A DNA stretch of 64,000 nucleotides from an uncultured Streptococcus sp. (GCA_963522215.1 CAUQXM010000003.1:306-64305); one strand, 5' to 3'. Shown: positions 2,079 to 42,501, numbered from the stretch's first letter. Numbers and translations: made by a program. Notes: a model not told the origin generated them from the sequence alone.

Positions 2079-4320
<2,242 letters not shown>

Positions 4321-4366
4321 CTTGAAAAGCTAAACTCAACTTGGTTAAACGACCATATAGAAAACT

Positions 4367-4393
4367 GCTCAGACAATGTTGTCTGGGCTTTTT
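4367..4393 (+). terminator. Intrinsic terminator after egtU
   Basis: GCTCAGACAA-TG-TTGTCTGGGC followed by a T run. Confidence 0.65.
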
Positions 4394-4478
4394 GGGTGTC
4401 AGAATTAATGATTTTCATTTTTAAATGGAAAATAAGAGGAAATTTTTAGGATTTTCTAAAATTTTACTGTAAATACAC

Positions 4479-4506
4479 TTGACTATTCACAAAATAGGTG
4501 TATAAT
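4479..4506 (+). promoter_or_regulatory. SigA promoter of the former pnuC leader
   Basis: TTGACT-16bp-TATAAT. Confidence 0.65.
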
Positions 4507-4509
4507 GTG

Positions 4510-4527
4510 TTGTGAACTACTTAACAA
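4510..4527. promoter_or_regulatory. Rex-like operator
   Basis: TTGTGAA-CTAC-TTAACAA, one mismatch to TTGTGAANNNNTTCACAA, just downstream of the -10. Confidence 0.65.
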
Positions 4528-4568
4528 ATAAAGATTTCCAGCTCATGTCGACTAAGGCTGGAAATCTT

Positions 4569-4582
4569 GTGTATAGACAGTT
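4569..4582. promoter_or_regulatory. NiaR-like operator
   Basis: GTGTATAGACAGTT fits the GTGTMTWKACASYT core recalled for streptococcal NiaR sites, which include the pnuC promoter. Confidence 0.55.
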
Positions 4583-4597
4583 CAGTAGATATATAAT

Positions 4598-4653
4598 AGA
4601 GCGTTGCGTCCGAAAGTCTATCCAGACACGGCTCTTTAAAAACAAAAGGAGAA
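4598..4653 (+). ncRNA. NAD+-II (pnuC-motif) riboswitch
   Basis: AGAGCGTTGCGTCCGAAAGTCT-ATCC-AGACACGGCTCTTTAAAAACAAAAGGAGAA: P1 AGAGC/GCTCT, inner GTCT/AGAC stem, loop TCC able to pair with the GGA of the RBS; matches the streptococcal pnuC motif; a pnuC remnant lies downstream. Confidence 0.88.
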
Positions 4654-4657
4654 GATT

Positions 4658-5260
4658 ATGAAAACAGAACCGATTCATCGTACCAGTATGTGGAAATTTA
4701 AGTTAAGTGCTGCCACCATGACTTTGATTCCCGCTGCCGTGGGGATTAACTATGTTGCCAAAGCCTTGGCGGAGGGATTAAAGTTGCCCGTTTGGCTGGG
4801 GTCTTTGGGAACCTTTCTTACCAGCATGTTGGCTGGGCCGGTTGCCGGTGCCATTAGTGGTTTCATCAACAACGTGATCTATGGGCTGACCTTATCGCCA
4901 ATTTCAACCGTGTATGCGATTACCAGCATCGGAATTGGGATTGCTGTCGGAGTTTTGCACGCCAATGGGTGGTTCTCGTCAGCGCGACGAGTATTTGTTT
5001 CTGCTATTATTATTGCCATCGTTTCAGCTGTCATTTCAACGCCACTCAACGTCATCTTTTGGGGTGGTCAGACCGGTATCGCTTGGGGTGACTCATTGTT
5101 TGCGGTAATGGTCGCCAATCATGCACCAGTGTGGCTGGCCTCATTTACCGATGAGTTTGTCTTGGATATTTTGGATAAAGTCTGCGTGGCCTACCTGTCA
5201 TTCTTCATCTATCGTCAGCTGCCGAAGCGGATGGTGCACTTCTTTAGCGATGATAAATGA
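4658..5260 (+). CDS. ECF transporter S component (QrtT/MtaT-like, nucleoside-associated family)
   Basis: 200 aa hydrophobic; KLPVWLGSLGT..AGPVAG, GGQTG, DK motifs; adjacent T and A components. Confidence 0.8.
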   Translation: MKTEPIHRTSMWKFKLSAATMTLIPAAVGINYVAKALAEGLKLPVWLGSLGTFLTSMLAGPVAGAISGFINNVIYGLTLSPISTVYAITSIGIGIAVGVLHANGWFSSARRVFVSAIIIAIVSAVISTPLNVIFWGGQTGIAWGDSLFAVMVANHAPVWLASFTDEFVLDILDKVCVAYLSFFIYRQLPKRMVHFFSDDK

Positions 5261-6051
5261 TGACTGATAAAACATTGATTTCTGGAGCGCCACGGGTCAA
5301 GCTCAAGTGGTACCAGGTAATCGATCCGATTACTAAGCTCTTGTTCATCTTGGACATGACGTTGTTGAGCTTTGCCAGTATGAATTTATTGCTTCAGGCC
5401 GGATTAATTCTTGTCGCAACACTGCTATTGTTATTTTCCAAATTGAGTTCTACCACCTTTAAGGCGCTGGGATTCAGCCTGTTTCTGATTTGCACCATGC
5501 TGATCATCCAAGGGTTATTTTACGGTCGGAATCAAACTGTGCTGTTTTCTGTGCTTGGGGTGTCGTTCTACAAAGAAGGCCTGATTTACGCCACCACTCT
5601 GGGTTGTCGAGTATTGGTGATTATTTTGACCAGTGGCTTTTTTATGGTGACCACGAGTATTTCAGAAAACGCGGCCTATTTGGAACTGTCCGGATTGTCT
5701 TATAAAACCGTCTACGTTCTGATGTCGGTGTGTTATATTTTGCCGGAAATGATACGCAATATGCGGAAAATCCAGCAGGCACAAAAAGTTCGCGGAACCA
5801 ATCCGCAAAAAACGTTGATTCAGAAATTAAAGTCAGTCCTGCCGGTTCTAATTCCATTGGTGATTAAGACCTTGGATCAATCGATGACGCGGTCGATTTC
5901 TCTCCAACTGAGAGGTTTTGATAATCTCAACCGGACTGTCAGAACCTCCCAGCGCGTGTATCGCCTGTCGCGGACGCTGCACATTGGTCTGACTGGATTG
6001 GCAATTTTATTGATTGGGTGGAAGATATGGACGAAGATAAACGGATTGTAA
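5257..6051 (+). CDS. ECF transporter T component (EcfT/CbiQ)
   Basis: DPITKL, AQKVRG and LQLRGF motifs. Confidence 0.85.
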   Translation: MMTDKTLISGAPRVKLKWYQVIDPITKLLFILDMTLLSFASMNLLLQAGLILVATLLLLFSKLSSTTFKALGFSLFLICTMLIIQGLFYGRNQTVLFSVLGVSFYKEGLIYATTLGCRVLVIILTSGFFMVTTSISENAAYLELSGLSYKTVYVLMSVCYILPEMIRNMRKIQQAQKVRGTNPQKTLIQKLKSVLPVLIPLVIKTLDQSMTRSISLQLRGFDNLNRTVRTSQRVYRLSRTLHIGLTGLAILLIGWKIWTKINGL

Positions 6052-6863
6052 TTGAAAATTTGACCACCCGTTATCCGGGTACTGAGCAACCACAACTGCG
6101 TCAGATTAACGCGGAGATTCATACCGGCCAGGTGGTTGGGATTATCGGGAATAGCCACTCCGGCAAATCGACTTTGTGTCGTGTGCTGGCAGGGGTCATT
6201 CCCAAAATTGTGTCTGCTGAGATTGAGGGTGATTGGCACATGTTTGGCCAGCGAGTGTCCGACAATTGGCCCGTTTATAATGCCATGAATGGAGTTGTAC
6301 TGCAAAATCCAGCTGGCCAACTAAGCGGGTTGGCAGACACGGTTGCCGATGAAATCGCCTTTGACTTGATTAATCAGGGAATGGCTGAAGGACTGATTCA
6401 AAAACGGGTTGAAGAAGTTGCCACGCAAATGGGGCTGATTGAACAGCTGAATTTGCGTCCCGAGAGCCTTTCCGGTGGTCAGATCCAGCGGTTGGCAATT
6501 GCCACGGCGATTGTGGCTAATCCGGCTGTTTTGATTATGGATGATCCGACCAGTGAGATGGATCCCCTTGGCCGCCGGCAATTTTTCCAATGGCTGGCCC
6601 AAGTCAAAGAGACGACTGTCTTCATTGTCACCAGTGAAATTGACGATTTGTGCGAAGTCGCCGACGTTGTGTGGGTGCTGCACGAGGGTCAAATGGTAGC
6701 CCAGGGCAGGCCGGGTGAGGTGTTTAATCATTTGGCGGCTGACTGGCAGATTCCAGCCCCGACAATCCAGCAACTTGCTCAAAAAATGGATTGGCACTTG
6801 GCTGATGGCCGGTATCCGGTGAATTACGCTGATCTGAAGGAGGTTCGTTATGTCCACAATTGA
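6018..6863 (+). CDS. ECF ATPase A1 (CbiO-like); start may be ATG 6027
   Basis: GNSHSGKST, LQNP, LSGGQ, MDDPTSEMD (Asp in the catalytic Glu position). Confidence 0.85.
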   Translation: MEDMDEDKRIVIENLTTRYPGTEQPQLRQINAEIHTGQVVGIIGNSHSGKSTLCRVLAGVIPKIVSAEIEGDWHMFGQRVSDNWPVYNAMNGVVLQNPAGQLSGLADTVADEIAFDLINQGMAEGLIQKRVEEVATQMGLIEQLNLRPESLSGGQIQRLAIATAIVANPAVLIMDDPTSEMDPLGRRQFFQWLAQVKETTVFIVTSEIDDLCEVADVVWVLHEGQMVAQGRPGEVFNHLAADWQIPAPTIQQLAQKMDWHLADGRYPVNYADLKEVRYVHN

Positions 6864-7650
6864 ACTGAGCCACCTGACGTTCACTTATCCGGAACGGTCC
6901 TTTAGCTTGGATGTTGAAGACAAACACTTCGCCGATCCGATGGTGGCGATTGTCGGCCAAAATGGTGCCGGCAAATCAACGCTCTTCAAATTGTTGACGG
7001 GCTTGCTGACACCACAAACCGGTGTGATTAAGAGCGATGGAGAAAATTTTAATGATCTTAAACCAGTCGAAAAGTTACTGAAGGTTGGGATTACTTTTCA
7101 GAATCCTGACGATCAGCTTTTCAACCCGACCGTTCAACGAGAGGTGGAGTGGAATGTCGCGCAGGTCATGGATGACCACGACACGATTACGAGGCGGGCT
7201 TTAGCGGCTCTAAAAAGAGTTGGCTTGGATGATAAAACAGCTGAAAGTCCATATGACCTGTCATTGTCGGAACGCAAGCTGTTGAGCGTTGCCACAGTTT
7301 TGGCAGTGGATCCGGCGATTTATTTATTTGATGAGCCGATGATGTCGCTTGATTGGGAAAGCCGGCGCAAGTTGACCGCAATTTTCCATCAGTTGGCTGA
7401 TTCGGGCCACCAAGTTGTGACCATCACCCATGACATGGATTGGGTCGCCGCCGAGTTTGAGTCGGTGTATGTTATGGAACACGGGAAGTTTGGCTTCGCC
7501 GGCAGTCCACGGGAATTGTTCAGCAATCACGAACTTGTCCAGCGAGTGGGATTACTACCACCGCGGATTATGGACATAGCGGAGTCTCTGGGTGATTCAC
7601 AGACATATTTATCGGTTAATGATTATTGCCAGAAAAATCGAGATGTATAG
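6850..7650 (+). CDS. ECF ATPase A2
   Basis: GQNGAGKST, FQNPDDQLF, degenerate LSLSE signature, DEP, THD. Confidence 0.85.
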   Translation: MSTIELSHLTFTYPERSFSLDVEDKHFADPMVAIVGQNGAGKSTLFKLLTGLLTPQTGVIKSDGENFNDLKPVEKLLKVGITFQNPDDQLFNPTVQREVEWNVAQVMDDHDTITRRALAALKRVGLDDKTAESPYDLSLSERKLLSVATVLAVDPAIYLFDEPMMSLDWESRRKLTAIFHQLADSGHQVVTITHDMDWVAAEFESVYVMEHGKFGFAGSPRELFSNHELVQRVGLLPPRIMDIAESLGDSQTYLSVNDYCQKNRDV

Positions 7651-7651
7651 A

Positions 7652-7707
7652 AAAAGTCACCTCTGCGGGTTTTCCAGGTTGAAGGATTAACTTCAGCTTC
7701 TGGCAAG
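7652..7707. terminator. Long hairpin after the ECF cassette
   Basis: AAAAGTCACC...GGTGACTTTT inverted repeat. Confidence 0.5.
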
Positions 7708-7856
7708 AACTCACATGGGTGACTTTTGTGTTTAATAACGTTTCATGATCATCGGGTGCTTCCTCAGATCACTCGGTTTGATTTTACTTTGTTTCATGGT
7801 TATAATCATATACCATTTCTTTTGGATTTTTTGTTTGACTAATACAAAATAGGTCT

Positions 7857-8048
7857 TCATAGGTCTTCGCATTTTTGGCGCCCATTAGGATCATCAGTAT
7901 AATTTTCTGAATTAGGAGACTGTCCCATCACTATTCGAACTTCGTCTTCCAACTTACGCTGTTCCCATTCATCCGTGAATCCTTTAAATCGCAATTCTGG
8001 AACTTTCTTTTTAACTGAATCATCTATTTTCGCCATAGTCCCCACCAT
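7857..8048 (-). pseudogene. hsdS: 5' fragment of a plasmid-type type I R-M specificity subunit
   Basis: KKKVPELRFKGFTDEWEQRKL, typical of lactococcal plasmid HsdS N-termini; truncated after about 55 aa. Confidence 0.8.
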
Positions 8049-8521
8049 TTTATTGGTTTTTCTTGTTCTTCTATCCTTTTTTGATCTTTGATTTGTTCCT
8101 GCAAATTTTCCAACTTCTCTTTAAGAGCGTTCACTTCATCTTTATATTGATTGTATAAGTGTTTGAATTCTGTTTCTTGTGAGGGCATTTTGAGGGCTTT
8201 TAAGTTATCATTTTCCGCCTTGTATTCTTCTAGCAACTTTTTATCTTGCAAGGCTAATCGTTGTTACTGGTCTAACAAATTAGTTAGTTTTTCTATTTGT
8301 TGGTCTTTGCTACTTATTTGTTGGTCTTTGGTATTCGATTTGCTACTACTTTCTACTTTACCTAAAATTATTTTTTCTGCTTTAGAATTTATTAGATTAG
8401 ACCCATTGGAACTTTTAAGCTGTAATTCTTTTGGTAACCTTTGGTAGTGATATTGAATATTTTGTTTTGTAACACTCAACTCATCCGCCAGCTCTTTGAT
8501 CGTTTTTAAGTCTTCACTCAT
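8024..8521 (-). pseudogene. Plasmid replication-associated OrfX/RepX, split by one nonsense codon
   Basis: MSEDLKTIKELADELSVTKQ HTH, coiled coil, KWWGLW end; the two ORFs are in frame around a TAA at 8264-8266. Confidence 0.8.
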
Positions 8522-8890
8522 GGTTTAAGTCCTGCCTTTTAACCGTTGGTAGATATTGTTCAATGGCTTTTTTGAGGTAGCGTACGATATTATGCTTAGA
8601 ATATTCTTCACGTCTGCTGGCAACATAAGACAAGTGGTCTTTAACACTATTTAGCCCTCTTAATTCTTTCAGTTCGTCATAGAGGGGGTAAACATGGACT
8701 TGCAATCCTGCCATGATTTTTGTATCTTGCATTTCAAACGGACTTAGCAACATATTTTCTAGCAATAGCGTGGTGTACTTGTTTTTCATTGCTTCAATAG
8801 CTAGCTTATCTTCGGTTTCTGCTTTGCGTGCTTTATCTTCTTGATAGGCGGTATCTTCTAACTTATAGCTGTTATCGTCTGCTCGACGTT
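8514..8890 (-). pseudogene. repB: 3' part of a lactococcal theta-plasmid RepB
   Basis: KRRADDNSYKL..LQVHVYPLYDELKELRGLN..YLKKAIEQYLPTVKRQDL; overlaps the orfX start as in repB-orfX-hsdS replicons. Confidence 0.8.
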
Positions 8891-9209
8891 TCTTTCGTAA
8901 CCAGATATCCAATGTTAAACCGTCCGCATCAATCGCTCGATAGAGATAATGCCAACGCCCCTTAATTTTGATATAGGTTTCATCCATTTTCCACGAATAG
9001 AAGGACTGTTTATTTTTCTTTTTCCAGAGATGATAGAGGATTTTACTGTATTCTTGAACCCACCGATAAATCGTAGTGTGACAAACATTTATTCCAGGGT
9101 CATAAAGCAATTCCTGAACTTCACGATAGCTCAGATTGTAACGTAGGTAATAATCAACAGCGACAATGATGACGTCTTGTTGGAATTGTTTGCCTTTAAA
9201 ATGATTCAT
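8890..9209 (-). mobile_element. N-terminal half of an IS6-family (ISS1/IS1216-like) transposase, fused in frame to repB
   Basis: MNHFKGKQFQQDVIIVAV..WKMDETYIKIKGRWHYLYRAID; C-terminal half absent and no terminal IR visible. Confidence 0.85.
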
Positions 9210-9251
9210 CTCTCAAGCCTTACTAACCTTTTTTCTGCTCTTTGAGAAGCT

Positions 9252-9770
9252 GAAGGTCGTGCTAGTAACTACCTATTTGGTTTGATTAATTCCATCATTT
9301 ATCTGGTGCTTGCCCTTCAAAAAGGCTTCTATGGTGAGGTTTTAACAACTCTCTATTTTACAATTATGCAACCGATTGGGCTCCTAGTTTGGATTTATCA
9401 AGCTCAGTTTAAGAAAGAACAACAAGAGTTTGTCGCACGTAAACTATATGGCAAGGGTTGGACAAAGTATCTTTCCATTAGTGTTCTTTGGTGGTTGGTT
9501 TTTGGCTTTATTTATCAGTCTATCGGTGCCAATCGTCCCTATCGTGATTCTATCACTGATGCGACCAATGGGGTAGGGCAAATCCTCATGACAGCTGTTT
9601 ACCGTGAACAATGGATATTCTGGGCAGCTACAAATGTCTTTTCAATTTATCTCTGGTGGGGAGGAAGCCTGCAAATTCAAGGGAAATACCTGATTTATCT
9701 CATCAACAGTCTAGTTGGTTGGTATCAGTGGAGCAAGGCAGCTAAGCAGAATGCTGACTTACCTAACTAA
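9252..9770 (+). pseudogene. pnuC: 5'-truncated nicotinamide riboside transporter PnuC
   Basis: Frame begins mid-protein at EGRASNYLFGLINS; contains YREQWIFW..N PnuC motif; N-terminal part, RBS and promoter missing. Confidence 0.85.
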
Positions 9771-18131: not shown

Positions 18132-18169
18132 CCCAAAATAGGCATGACAAAAACGACCATACCTCACTT

Positions 18170-18245
18170 CTGACTTACTTATTGTTAGGTGTTCCGGCAC
18201 CTTGTAGAAACGTCGTGCCAATTCACGACATAAACAAGTAAAATG
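18170..18245 (-). ncRNA. Purine (guanine-type) riboswitch
   Basis: Minus strand TACTTGTTTATGTCGTGAATTGGCACGACGTTTCTACAAGGTGCCGGAACACCTAACAATAAGTA; C at the discriminator; upstream of xpt-pbuX. Confidence 0.92.
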
Positions 18246-18487
18246 ATATTCAATTTCAAATAGGCTTGAGCCAATGTTTTTATTTTACACTAAATAACTT
18301 TAAAAATCAAATATTTTGTCAGTATTTAGATATAAAAAACGAACAAATGTAAGAAAATGGACAAAAATCCATCATTGGCTAACATTTAGAAGGTTTTTCC
18401 ATCATAAAAGGGCATATTATTAGGTTTTTAAACACCTGACAATATGCCTTTTTCTAACTTTAAAGACTTTTCCCAATCTTTATTATT

Positions 18488-40750: not shown

Positions 40751-41039
40751 TTGACAAAGAAAAAACAAAGTATTAAAATAAGTTCAACAAATCAGAAAAG
40801 TAACTATTTTTGATCTTCAGGGAGCCTGTGGTGATTGTGAACAGGTGGTTGAAAGTAGTGAAAGTGGGCTGATTTTAAAAATGAATTTGAAACAATGAAA
40901 ATTCGGTGCGCACACCTTACAGTGCAACTTGTTGTTAGACAAGGTAGAGATGTAAAGGAGATAGTTCCTTTATAATTGAGGTGGCACCGCGTTACCAACG
41001 CCCTCACATGGAATTTAATTCTGTGTGTGGGCTTTTTTC
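40751..41039 (+). ncRNA. Promoter and Trp T-box riboswitch 1
   Basis: TTGACA-17-TAAAAT; stem I AAATCAG/CTGATTT with GAAAG-TGG specifier; AATTGAGGTGGCACCGCG at 40974; terminator with T run. Confidence 0.9.
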
Positions 41040-41074: not shown

Positions 41075-42253
41075 ATGACAACTAAAGGTTATTTTGGACA
41101 ATTTGGTGGTAGTTTTGTACCGGAGCCTATTCAGGCTTTGTTGGATGAGTTGGAAGTGACATTTGAAAAGTACAAGGATGATCCAGAATTTTTGGCAGAA
41201 TTTCGCCATTACTTAAAGGACTATTCAGGTCGCGAAACACCGCTCTATTTTGCGGAAAGTTTGACAGACCACTTAGGTGGCGCTAAGATTTATCTCAAGC
41301 GCGAAGACCTGAACCACCTTGGTTCTCACAAGCTCAACAACGTTTTAGGACAAATCCTTCTTGCCAAACGTATGGGCAAAAAACGAGTGATTGCGGAAAC
41401 AGGAGCTGGTCAGCACGGTGTTGCGACAGCAGCGGCTGCAGCCAAGTTTGGGATGGCCTGTGATGTCTACATGGGAGCAGAGGATGTGGAACGTCAACGT
41501 CTCAATGTTTTCCGTATGGAGATGATGGGAGCAACTGTTCATGCAGTTGAAACGGGAACACGAACTCTTAAGGATGCGGTTGATGCAGCCTTTGGAGCAT
41601 GGATGAATGACCTTGAAGCCTTCTATGTTCTGGGATCTGCTGTAGGTCCTCACCCTTATCCTACAATTGTTCATGAATTCCAAAAGGTCATCAGTGAAGA
41701 ATCTCGCCGTCAAATCTTAGAAAAAGAAGGCCGTTTACCAGACTACGTTATTGCCTGTGTAGGTGGTGGTTCCAATGCCATCGGTGCTTTTTCGCAGTAT
41801 GTGGCTGATGAAGAAGTCAAATTGGTTGGGGTCGAAGCTGCTGGTCATGGACTTGATACAGACAAGCACGCAGCTACTATGACAAAAGGTAGTATCGGAA
41901 TTGTCGACGGCATGAAGACCTATGCAGTCTTTAAGGAAGATGGAGAGCTAGCTCCAGTTTACTCTATCTCAGCTGGTTTGGACTATCCAGGGGTTGGTCC
42001 AGAACACGCCTACTTTAAAGATTCTGGCCGCGTAGAATATGTGGCAGCGACAGATGAAGAAGCGGTTCAAGCCTTGCTCCTTCTTAGTAAGACAGAAGGA
42101 ATTATCCCAGCGATTGAAAGTTCGCATGCCATCGCAGAAGCAGTTAAACGTGCACCGAAACTAAGTAAAGATGAGATTATCATCATCAATGTCTCTGGTC
42201 GTGGAGACAAGGACGTAGCTGCTATTGCAGACTACCTAGAAGCTAAAAAATAA
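41075..42253 (+). CDS. trpB: Tryptophan synthase beta chain, extra paralogue
   Basis: [37 protein letters not shown] 41075 after AGAGG. Confidence 0.93.
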
Positions 42254-42254
42254 A

Positions 42255-42501
42255 AGATGGAAAAATTACAGTCTTTTCTCTCACAGAGAGCTTGTGGTTG
42301 CTGGAAACAAGCAGAGAAAGCTGTAAGGTTGGGTCCATCTGAAACGAGAGAAGAAAACATAATTCTCAAGGGAGTGCCCTTTATCGCACAGCCTGTTACA
42401 GGAGGTTTCTGAGACAGGAATGAGAGATAGGAGAAATCCTATAATTGAGGTGGCACCGCGAATTTCGTCCTCACGCAAGTTATTTTGCGTGGGGATTTTT
42501 C
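42255..42501 (+). ncRNA. Trp T-box riboswitch 2
   Basis: Stem I AGATGG/CCATCT with AGAGA and GCTG motifs and TGG specifier; AATTGAGGTGGCACCGCG at 42443; terminator TCCTCACGCAAG/TTTGCGTGGGGA-TTTTT. Confidence 0.9.

Follow-up and report, generated by a model that had tools for sequence, protein, structure and literature searches.

A plasmid-like ECF importer operon behind a native NAD+-II riboswitch at the streptococcal pnuC locus

A 64,000-nt stretch of DNA from an uncultured Streptococcus sp. (the window, by which we mean the whole stretch; coordinates are counted from its first letter) carries an intact nicotinamide adenine dinucleotide (NAD+)-II riboswitch, or pnuC motif, which is followed not by pnuC but by the four genes of an energy-coupling factor (ECF) importer. 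We consider that these observations are best explained, with good confidence, by a native pnuC locus that now drives a plasmid-derived ECF importer. In the mechanism that we propose, a native streptococcal pnuC promoter, a NiaR operator and the NAD+-II riboswitch would drive an importer of the S-T-A-A' type, whose cassette, along with trailing plasmid DNA and a remnant of an IS6-family element, has replaced codons 1-82 of pnuC. Binding of NAD+, nicotinamide mononucleotide (NMN) or nicotinamide riboside (NR) is predicted to form a pseudoknot that hides the ribosome-binding site of the S gene, with the overlapping T, A and A' genes probably being affected through coupling, while NiaR would repress the promoter when niacin is plentiful. 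Given both the NAD+ switch and repression by NiaR, the importer would be made only when the supply of NAD precursors is low. As the fusion spread, each recipient species kept its own riboswitch allele. For the architecture and its history, namely the displacement of pnuC by a foreign ECF cassette that took over its riboswitch, we regard the case as very strong.

The riboswitch, its promoter and the importer genes

The riboswitch had been proposed in a first-pass annotation, which placed an intact pnuC-motif element at 4598-4653, with its ribosome-binding site feeding the ATG at 4658, and both parts of this proposal hold. It had also suggested a covariance-model search with the pnuC motif as a check. 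Our own model, trained solely on seven leaders of intact pnuC genes, has a single match in the window (4595-4660; 87.8 bits, E 6.6e-20); the donor plasmids, the nadR-pnuC2 locus and the ECF relatives from other families, all described below, give no match. Rfam 15 returns nothing at 4300-4800, either at its gathering threshold or at E <= 10, and is equally silent on the leaders before intact pnuC genes in relatives. Thus, the class is absent from this library and its silence in the window is no evidence either way. A further hit in the same genome (G000), considered as a second copy of the riboswitch, was rejected, as it is only an A-rich ribosome-binding stretch.

Mapping of the window aptamer to the residues named for the crystal structure in the available part of the structural report (PMC9841397) gave identity at 22 of 23 positions (compared were G6, U7, U8, A9, C10, G11, U12-C14, A16-A18, A39, C40, G41, C54, A55-A58 and G59-A61). 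Aptamer position 9 is G instead of A, and it is likewise G in all seven pnuC-linked relatives. All six pairs of P1 are standard in the window and in each of these seven relatives. One pair of P1a varies, being U-A in four, A-U in two and non-standard in one of seven sequences; this covariation is not significant in the seven-sequence alignment (it was reached by 78 of 500 shuffles). That the sole varying pair lies in P1a agrees with a remark in the available part of the discovery paper (PMC7749635) that only P1a shows covariation in the class. The UCC and GGA strands of the pseudoknot, which are here recognized by complementarity only, are followed by the ATG of the S gene 7 nt after the GGA, and the latter lies inside the Shine-Dalgarno sequence. 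The entire aptamer is identical to one upstream of intact pnuC in two related loci (L035 and L036). Together, the model score and the structural positions confirm, at the level of sequence, 4598-4653 as an intact NAD+-II riboswitch.

The element therefore shares with the NAD+-II riboswitches described before streptococcal pnuC (Panchapakesan et al. 2021, PMC7749635; structures in PMC9841397; both as far as their available parts go) the same aptamer parts, that is P1, the internal loop, P1a, the UCC/GGA pseudoknot encompassing the ribosome-binding site, and the A-rich tail, as well as the same genus, locus and promoter region. As the known elements are translational OFF switches, the same behavior would be expected here. 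In contrast to them, the regulated gene is an ECF S component, with T, A and A' genes, and not pnuC, and the last 4 nt before the ATG are plasmid-derived.

With 95% identity, the leader closely resembles the pnuC leader of a relative, which argues that the promoter is native to pnuC. The NiaR-operator-like site that overlaps its -35 hexamer is the sole match in the window to the published streptococcal NiaR consensus at up to three mismatches (0.07 expected by chance in 64 kb), having three mismatches in 23, and 20 of its 22 compared bases are those of the Streptococcus pneumoniae PpnuC operator, which, according to the available part of PMC5343564, was tested by mutation. A NiaR-type 3H-domain protein is encoded in the same genome. 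The whole leader has a minimum free energy of -32.6 kcal/mol (z -2.04); its minimum-free-energy fold misses P1 and pairs CUCUUU with AAGGAG, in a program that cannot model pseudoknots. Between the promoter and the aptamer lies a 13-bp hairpin, also present in the pnuC leader of a relative (G011), which is not a terminator because it lacks a T run.

The first-pass annotation had further read the ATG at 4658 as the start of an ECF S component, followed by T, A1 and A2 genes in GC-richer DNA. Profiles, an AlphaFold model and the ranking of Foldseek matches agree with this, and the GC content is 0.44-0.53 over 4600-7600 as against 0.31-0.43 at either side. The S protein scores 89.4 bits on NCBIfam NF045596 ('CD3073 family putative ECF transporter S component'), below the 180-bit cut-off, with its relatives scoring 96-116 bits on the same profile; no Pfam profile matches it at E <= 0.001, and ECF_trnsprt appears only at E 0.006. 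Its AlphaFold model, built from a 54-sequence alignment (pLDDT 94.4, pTM 0.90), was compared to the PDB with Foldseek, and ranks 1-22 are all ECF S components (RibU, ThiT, PanT, FolT and BioY) at 12-18% identity, with TM-scores of 0.43-0.62 normalized by model length. None of these matches reaches E <= 0.001, and it is the unbroken run of S components at the top that supports the fold assignment; the ESM Atlas likewise returns 'ECF transporter S component'. The T component matches CbiQ (78.6 bits), the best profiles of the A1 and A2 proteins are TIGR04520 and TIGR04521, with scores below the equivalog cut-offs, and all three genes follow S in one operon with overlapping gene ends. As predicted from these profiles and models, 4658-7650 is a dedicated (group I) ECF importer of S-T-A-A' organization. 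Distant relatives of the S protein also occur as domains of proteins of 800-2000 aa (P0150, P0167, P0177, P0180, P0187 and others).

Plasmid origin, the joint and spread among streptococci

From about 4639 to 8895 the window is 95-99% identical to Lactococcus plasmids (pNZ4000, NC_002137; pEPSC7, NZ_AP024229; and others), and a Lactiplantibacillus plantarum plasmid (NZ_CP094386) matches the cassette to the same extent as far as window position 7858. Chromosomal S proteins of lactobacilli are 75-95% identical to that of the window. This evidence supports a foreign origin of the ECF cassette, apparently from a plasmid of lactic acid bacteria. The plasmid cassettes contain the same four genes, followed by the same RepB-region DNA; they differ in that a -10 box of their own immediately precedes the S gene, with neither an NAD+-II riboswitch nor a NiaR box upstream. 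A literature search found no published function for the plasmid cassettes, that of pNZ4000 included. The donor plasmids additionally have the Rfam 'lactis-plasmid' RNA and a ctRNA near the cassette (L039 1454-1559, L041 2954-3059), which are absent from the plasmid remnant of the window.

The left joint can be placed within a few nucleotides. Plasmid homology begins at about 4639-4641, and the tail of the riboswitch and the ribosome-binding region of the plasmids share the 9 nt AAAGGAGAA; the sequence is chromosome-like through A 4644 and plasmid-like from G 4654 (GATT, 4654-4657). Hence, the crossover took place within 4645-4653, inside the pseudoknot-forming sequence, and since it fell within the shared 9 nt all nucleotides of the aptamer and the pseudoknot were kept. 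Recombination in so short a shared sequence means that the pairing of riboswitch and importer began by accident.

On the right side, the plasmid-type DNA at 7857-9209 is broken, consisting of split small ORFs and one ORF in which an IS6 transposase is fused to RepB, as had been claimed for the genes neighboring the cassette. Beyond it lies what is left of pnuC. No full-length PnuC (TIGR01528) is encoded at the riboswitch locus, and residues 83-262 of the protein lie 4.6 kb downstream of the riboswitch. The first-pass annotation was right that PnuC survives as a 3' remnant; the portion kept is two-thirds rather than half, covering positions 31-187 of the TIGR01528 profile, with DNA homology from about 9246. 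Likewise, its view that a foreign ECF transporter displaced pnuC stands for the 5' third of that gene, codons 1-82 having been lost. The IS6 sequence is not a complete element: its end differs from that of ISS1S, and a search for terminal inverted repeats, using an IS6 repeat motif with up to three mismatches, gave 0 matches. From these two observations the right joint is not a clean insertion sequence end. It is our guess that the plasmid DNA entered pnuC by formation of an IS6 cointegrate and a subsequent deletion.

The distribution of the fusion was surveyed in a sample of 401 genomes of the genus, one per species, with a 100-nt probe across the riboswitch-S joint. The joint was detected in 99 of these genomes (about a quarter), nearly all of them with 98-100% identity over the full length of the probe; single-contig genomes (G140, G304, G099 and G173) are among the carriers. 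Cross-tabulation of three genus-wide scans, for the riboswitch, the ECF joint and pnuC, showed that the 168 genomes with a strong riboswitch match divide into 99 with the ECF joint, 68 with riboswitch-type pnuC and one with neither, there being none with both. This comparison of the junction across streptococci, which the first-pass annotation had proposed, disposes of a one-off or artefactual junction; its caveat of a chance junction survives in the sense that the joint itself arose by 9-nt microhomology. In two genomes (G110 and G279) the joint is found on two contigs each, which could reflect a split in the assembly, a duplication or a mixture of strains.

The gene order in sister genomes is opuA, riboswitch, intact pnuC, tetR, CDF gene and galR (L034-L036). 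The complete layout of the window, including the trailing plasmid DNA and the truncation point, recurs in all seven fetched loci of the window type, and eight other ECF loci have the same left joint with pnuC reduced to its last 21 codons, to residues 144-263 or to nothing; remnants of pnuC thus differ in length among the 16 fetched ECF loci. Divergence from the window across the seven same-layout loci is 0.75% in the ECF cassette, 1.0% in the trailing plasmid DNA, 3.3% in the leader, 7.0% in opuA, 8.3% in the pnuC remnant, 10.6% in galR, 20% in tetR and 23% in the CDF gene, and in seven loci of other layouts it is 1.5% in the cassette versus 21-29% in the flanks. With the cassette diverging far less than its flanks, the insertion is much younger than the species that carry it and has moved between them. 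The ECF-linked copies bear the P1a allele of the pnuC leader of their own lineage, which implies that the incoming DNA recombined 3' of P1a. Taken together, these comparisons show that the fusion arose once and was then passed between streptococcal species into the same locus. A candidate for a distinct, divergent cassette (G003) was rejected, as its DNA is 90-92% identical and riddled with frame breaks.

Loci with the riboswitch but without the ECF operon show, in some relatives, a pnuC that is itself decaying (L005 of G011, 1500-1570 on the minus strand, and also L034 of G167): the ligand-contacting G equivalent to 4630 of the window is A, and pnuC has TAA at codon 6. Internal stops are present in five of the riboswitch-type pnuC genes listed (G011, G354, G167, G123 and G398).

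Selection, substrate and the place of PnuC

The first-pass annotation had taken the intact ECF genes amid broken plasmid genes as a sign of selection, and comparison of the fetched copies bears this out. Counting the window, 14 of 17 streptococcal loci have all four genes intact. The ratio of nonsynonymous to synonymous polymorphism (pN/pS) is 0.44 when pooled and 0.15-0.28 between the window and six same-layout loci, and there are 0 indels in 20,951 aligned ECF bases versus seven in 11,165 bases of trailing plasmid DNA; the compared copies are related, so that these counts do not represent independent events. The pattern points to purifying selection of moderate strength on the ECF genes of a young element. 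The stretch is also held in 14 RNA runs from five studies, and the riboswitch-S joint, for which reads spanning it had been proposed as a check, is bridged by contigs of four RNA libraries from four studies (4624-9350, 4493-8121 and two spanning 4200-9742). In one run (X3) 4329-4492 is free of contigs, with one starting at 4493, and in another (X1) depth is low to the left of 4448.

With respect to the substrate, the first-pass annotation had noted that S components of this type are often linked to nucleoside hydrolases, and a link to nucleoside enzymes is seen among relatives at two levels of identity. Other families of the order contain S relatives of about 50% identity, and five of the nine annotated loci of relatives with at least 50% identity (L042, L046, L049, L052 and L054, as opposed to L043, L044, L055 and L056) have a uridine-phosphorylase-like gene directly upstream on the same strand, the genes scoring 185-220 bits on TIGR01718, below its cut-off of 280. 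A gene for a RihC- or UriH-like nucleoside hydrolase immediately precedes two S relatives of 31-32% identity, and in one such neighborhood (L059) genes for a ribokinase, an adenosine deaminase, a phosphorylase (PNP) and a LacI regulator are also present. None of these S-relative loci has an Rfam-known riboswitch, preQ1 included, or an NAD+-II element before the operon. These neighborhoods support a link of the S family to the use of ribonucleosides, and we infer a ribonucleoside as the substrate. In a streptococcus (L054 of G353, 5836-6969) with an S relative of 49% identity, the upstream phosphorylase-like gene encodes an additional N-terminal cyclic-nucleotide-binding domain. Similar neighborhoods are known for the QrtT/QueT-type S components of queuosine-precursor salvage, which, according to the available part of PMC11130926, are served by dedicated ECF modules and have nucleoside enzymes as neighbors. 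The QrtT/MtaT likeness suggested in the first-pass annotation is putative; the sole NCBIfam match of the S protein is the uncharacterized 'CD3073 family', below the cut-off.

A second line of evidence comes from the genes for NR salvage. No full-length PnuC was detected in 40 of the 99 carriers (with one query, 25 gave no match, nine a fragment only and six a remnant only), and 16 of 18 tested carriers without PnuC have an uninterrupted NadR, in which, for G230, G013 and G325, Pfam finds both the adenylyltransferase and the riboside-kinase domains. A full-length NadR was found in none of ten genomes that lack both PnuC and the ECF operon, three of which have only a 169-aa frame matching the adenylyltransferase half of NadR. 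With moderate weight, this pattern fits the replacement of PnuC by an unrelated transporter. The window locus shares its position and regulators with PnuC-NadR salvage of NR, along with the retention of NadR in most of the tested carriers without PnuC. In contrast to an ECF importer, which is driven by ATP, PnuC is a facilitator and belongs to an unrelated fold family, and the shared job is hypothetical. The change of control is also relevant: having lost its own promoter, the cassette now stands under a leader shut by NAD+ and niacin, which would suit an importer of NAD precursors and an unrelated importer poorly. Consequently, our leading single candidate for the substrate, put forward tentatively and on grounds of sequence and context, is NR or a close pyridine nucleoside. 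Equally tentative is the fuller scenario in which an ATP-driven ECF importer of NR (or of NMN or a close pyridine nucleoside) displaced PnuC at its riboswitch- and NiaR-controlled locus and, owing to this function, spread from a plasmid pool of lactic acid bacteria through streptococci of the mouth, the gut and dairy products.

Several observations weigh against such a role. The genome of the window has an intact nadR-pnuC2-nrtR operon on another contig (contig 23; L014 427-3049), coding for a 352-aa NadR, a 259-aa PnuC paralog that is 56% identical to the riboswitch-linked type and has no NAD+-II element upstream, and a 257-aa NrtR-like Nudix regulator; with nadR-pnuC2 intact, this genome needs no replacement of PnuC. 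A PnuC paralog with about 57% identity is kept in 59 of the 99 carriers, this genome included. NadR itself has no match in two of the 18 tested PnuC-less carriers (G219 and G260), and the NadR contrast is confounded by phylogeny, given that shared ancestry and a very recent insertion would produce the same pattern. The closest annotated chromosomal relatives of the cassette (L055 and L056) are without a neighboring nucleoside enzyme. Within the S signature, Gly48 (4799-4801) takes the place of an Asp found in 50 of 54 family members (family motif W-L-D-S-I-G-T). This Gly is common to the clade of the window (streptococci, plasmids and lactobacilli of >=75% identity) and may reflect an altered specificity of S, so that the clade may differ in specificity from the enzyme-linked relatives. 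Chance microhomology can explain the joint, and because neither an NAD+-II nor any Rfam-known riboswitch accompanies the donor cassette or its ECF relatives from other families, nothing in the origin of the cassette ties it to NAD. An ECF gene is broken in three of the 17 loci, by a premature stop in T (L020, G304), by multiple frameshifts (L032, G179) or by heavy degradation with frameshifts (L037, G003). The cassette is also young, with a synonymous divergence (dS) of about 0.02, and the intact frames and the retention of nadR may in part be inertia. Furthermore, contigs from RNA libraries cannot give the starts, ends or levels of transcripts and may include DNA. As regards the broken loci, the G179 assembly has a completeness of 66%, and indel errors may be frequent in that of G003.

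A rival reading is an incidental rewiring, in which the ECF imports uridine, a different ribonucleoside or some unknown compound that has nothing to do with NAD. Control by NAD+ and niacin would be a tolerated by-product of the site where the cassette landed, and the allele would have spread either through frequent recombination, streptococci being naturally transformable, or for an advantage that does not involve NAD. We consider this possible, if somewhat doubtful. The promoter of the plasmid donors and their lack of a riboswitch, the microhomology at the joint, the carriers that keep pnuC2 and the uridine-phosphorylase-like and RihC/UriH-like neighbors of the relatives all speak for it. What it explains poorly is that an importer of an unrelated compound would be expressed only during a shortage of NAD precursors, which is hard to square with an allele that occupies 99 of 167 riboswitch loci and is under purifying selection; nor does it account for the 40 of 99 carriers in which the ECF took the place of their sole PnuC, most of those tested retaining a NadR with its riboside-kinase domain.

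An improbable alternative is that the locus is a relic in decay, in which the insertion killed pnuC and the ECF genes are recent, functionless passengers. The low dS, the broken genes in three loci and a divergence of the trailing plasmid DNA close to that of the cassette are compatible with such a history. In contrast, the pN/pS values and the absence of ECF indels argue for constraint, later deletions took plasmid DNA and more of pnuC while sparing the four ECF genes (L026-L031 and L033), and contigs from RNA libraries cover the operon.

It is very improbable that the riboswitch was at first part of the ECF cassette and came to pnuC secondarily. It precedes the ECF more often than pnuC in the sample, yet it is absent upstream of the plasmid cassettes and of relatives in other families, and what remains of pnuC follows the ECF genes within one and the same locus. 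The leaders linked to pnuC also vary far more, in keeping with the divergence of their flanks, and the ECF copies bear the riboswitch allele of the recipient species. An assembly chimera, which the 75-contig draft (85% complete) and the insertion and plasmid sequences that invite misjoins might suggest, is scarcely credible given the same 100-nt joint in 99 of 401 genomes, single-contig ones included, and its bridging by four independent RNA runs.

Features of the locus and significance

The features of the locus are collected in the table. Elsewhere in the window, two T-box leaders (40784-41008 and 42250-42475, both on the plus strand) and one purine riboswitch (18162-18257, minus strand) score above the Rfam gathering thresholds.

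Table 1. Positions of the riboswitch, the importer genes and neighboring features in the window
Feature	Position	Strand	Basis or remark
opuA-type ABC system	2079-4320		operon ends in terminator-like hairpin
Terminator-like hairpin, 9-bp stem then T run	4367..4388	+	end of upstream opuA-type ABC operon
NiaR-operator-like site, overlaps -35 hexamer	4461..4483	not assigned	consensus match
Sigma-70-type promoter TTGACT-16-TATAAT, native pnuC promoter	4479..4506	+	11/12 matches
13-bp hairpin in 5' leader	4531..4568	+	fold of whole leader
NAD+-II (pnuC-motif) aptamer	4598..4653	+	covariance model, crystal-structure numbering
P1	4598-4603 with 4629 and 4631-4635	+	
Pseudoknot 5' strand UCC	4609-4611	+	
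P1a	4616-4619 with 4624-4627	+	
Ligand-contacting G; C; A4 run	4630; 4643; 4644-4647	+	
Pseudoknot 3' strand GGA	4648-4650	+	inside Shine-Dalgarno GGAG
Crossover interval AAAGGAGAA	4645..4653	+	alignment of pnuC leader with plasmid cassette
ECF S component, 200 aa, signature KLPVWLGSLGT	4658..5260	+	profile, AlphaFold, Foldseek
ECF T component (CbiQ family)	5257..6051	+	start overlaps S stop codon
ECF ATPase A1	6018..6863	+	TIGR04520 175 bits, below cut-off of 315
ECF ATPase A2	6850..7650	+	TIGR04521 184.5 bits, below cut-off of 330
Lactococcal-plasmid small-ORF fragments	7857..8521 (7857-8048, 8024-8251, 8264-8521)	-	split ORFs
Fusion ORF: IS6-family transposase N-terminal part and RepB C-terminal domain	8514..9209	-	profile positions 1-120 of 202
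pnuC remnant, residues ~83-262 of 263	9246..9770	+	DNA homology start ~9246; ORF 9282-9770

The available part of the discovery paper reports that a 'hypothetical' gene, usually with a transposase, is frequently associated with the NAD+-II motif (PMC7749635). The first-pass annotation had called the pairing of riboswitch and transporter undescribed, which is too strong a claim, as the partner gene had already been noticed in that paper, though without being identified. The S gene is annotated as 'hypothetical protein' on both pNZ4000 and pEPSC7, and in the window an IS6 transposase remnant follows it; very probably, it is the 'hypothetical' partner gene in question. What the present analysis adds to the available part of PMC7749635 is the identification of the partner as an S gene within an ECF operon of plasmid origin, the mapping of its origin and joint, and its frequency of 99 in 168. 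A literature search found no paper linking the NAD+-II motif to an ECF transporter.

These findings bear on a riboswitch class that has been described as almost exclusively tied to pnuC, 99 of the 168 strong matches in our sample preceding a plasmid-derived ECF operon instead. They also provide an example of a translational riboswitch being re-aimed at a new gene, in which a crossover in the Shine-Dalgarno/pseudoknot stretch left the sensor untouched. For commensal and dairy streptococci and for lactococcal plasmids, the operon is a testable candidate for a new means of NAD-precursor uptake. Should it import NR, it would be the first ECF-type NR transporter, and the NAD+-II riboswitch would, in the sample, act on this ECF more frequently than on pnuC. 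Should it carry something else, a mismatched regulator would be spreading widely, which matters for the practice of inferring function from riboswitch context. Present in about a quarter of the sampled streptococcal species, the fusion may mark an unrecognized route of NAD-precursor uptake.

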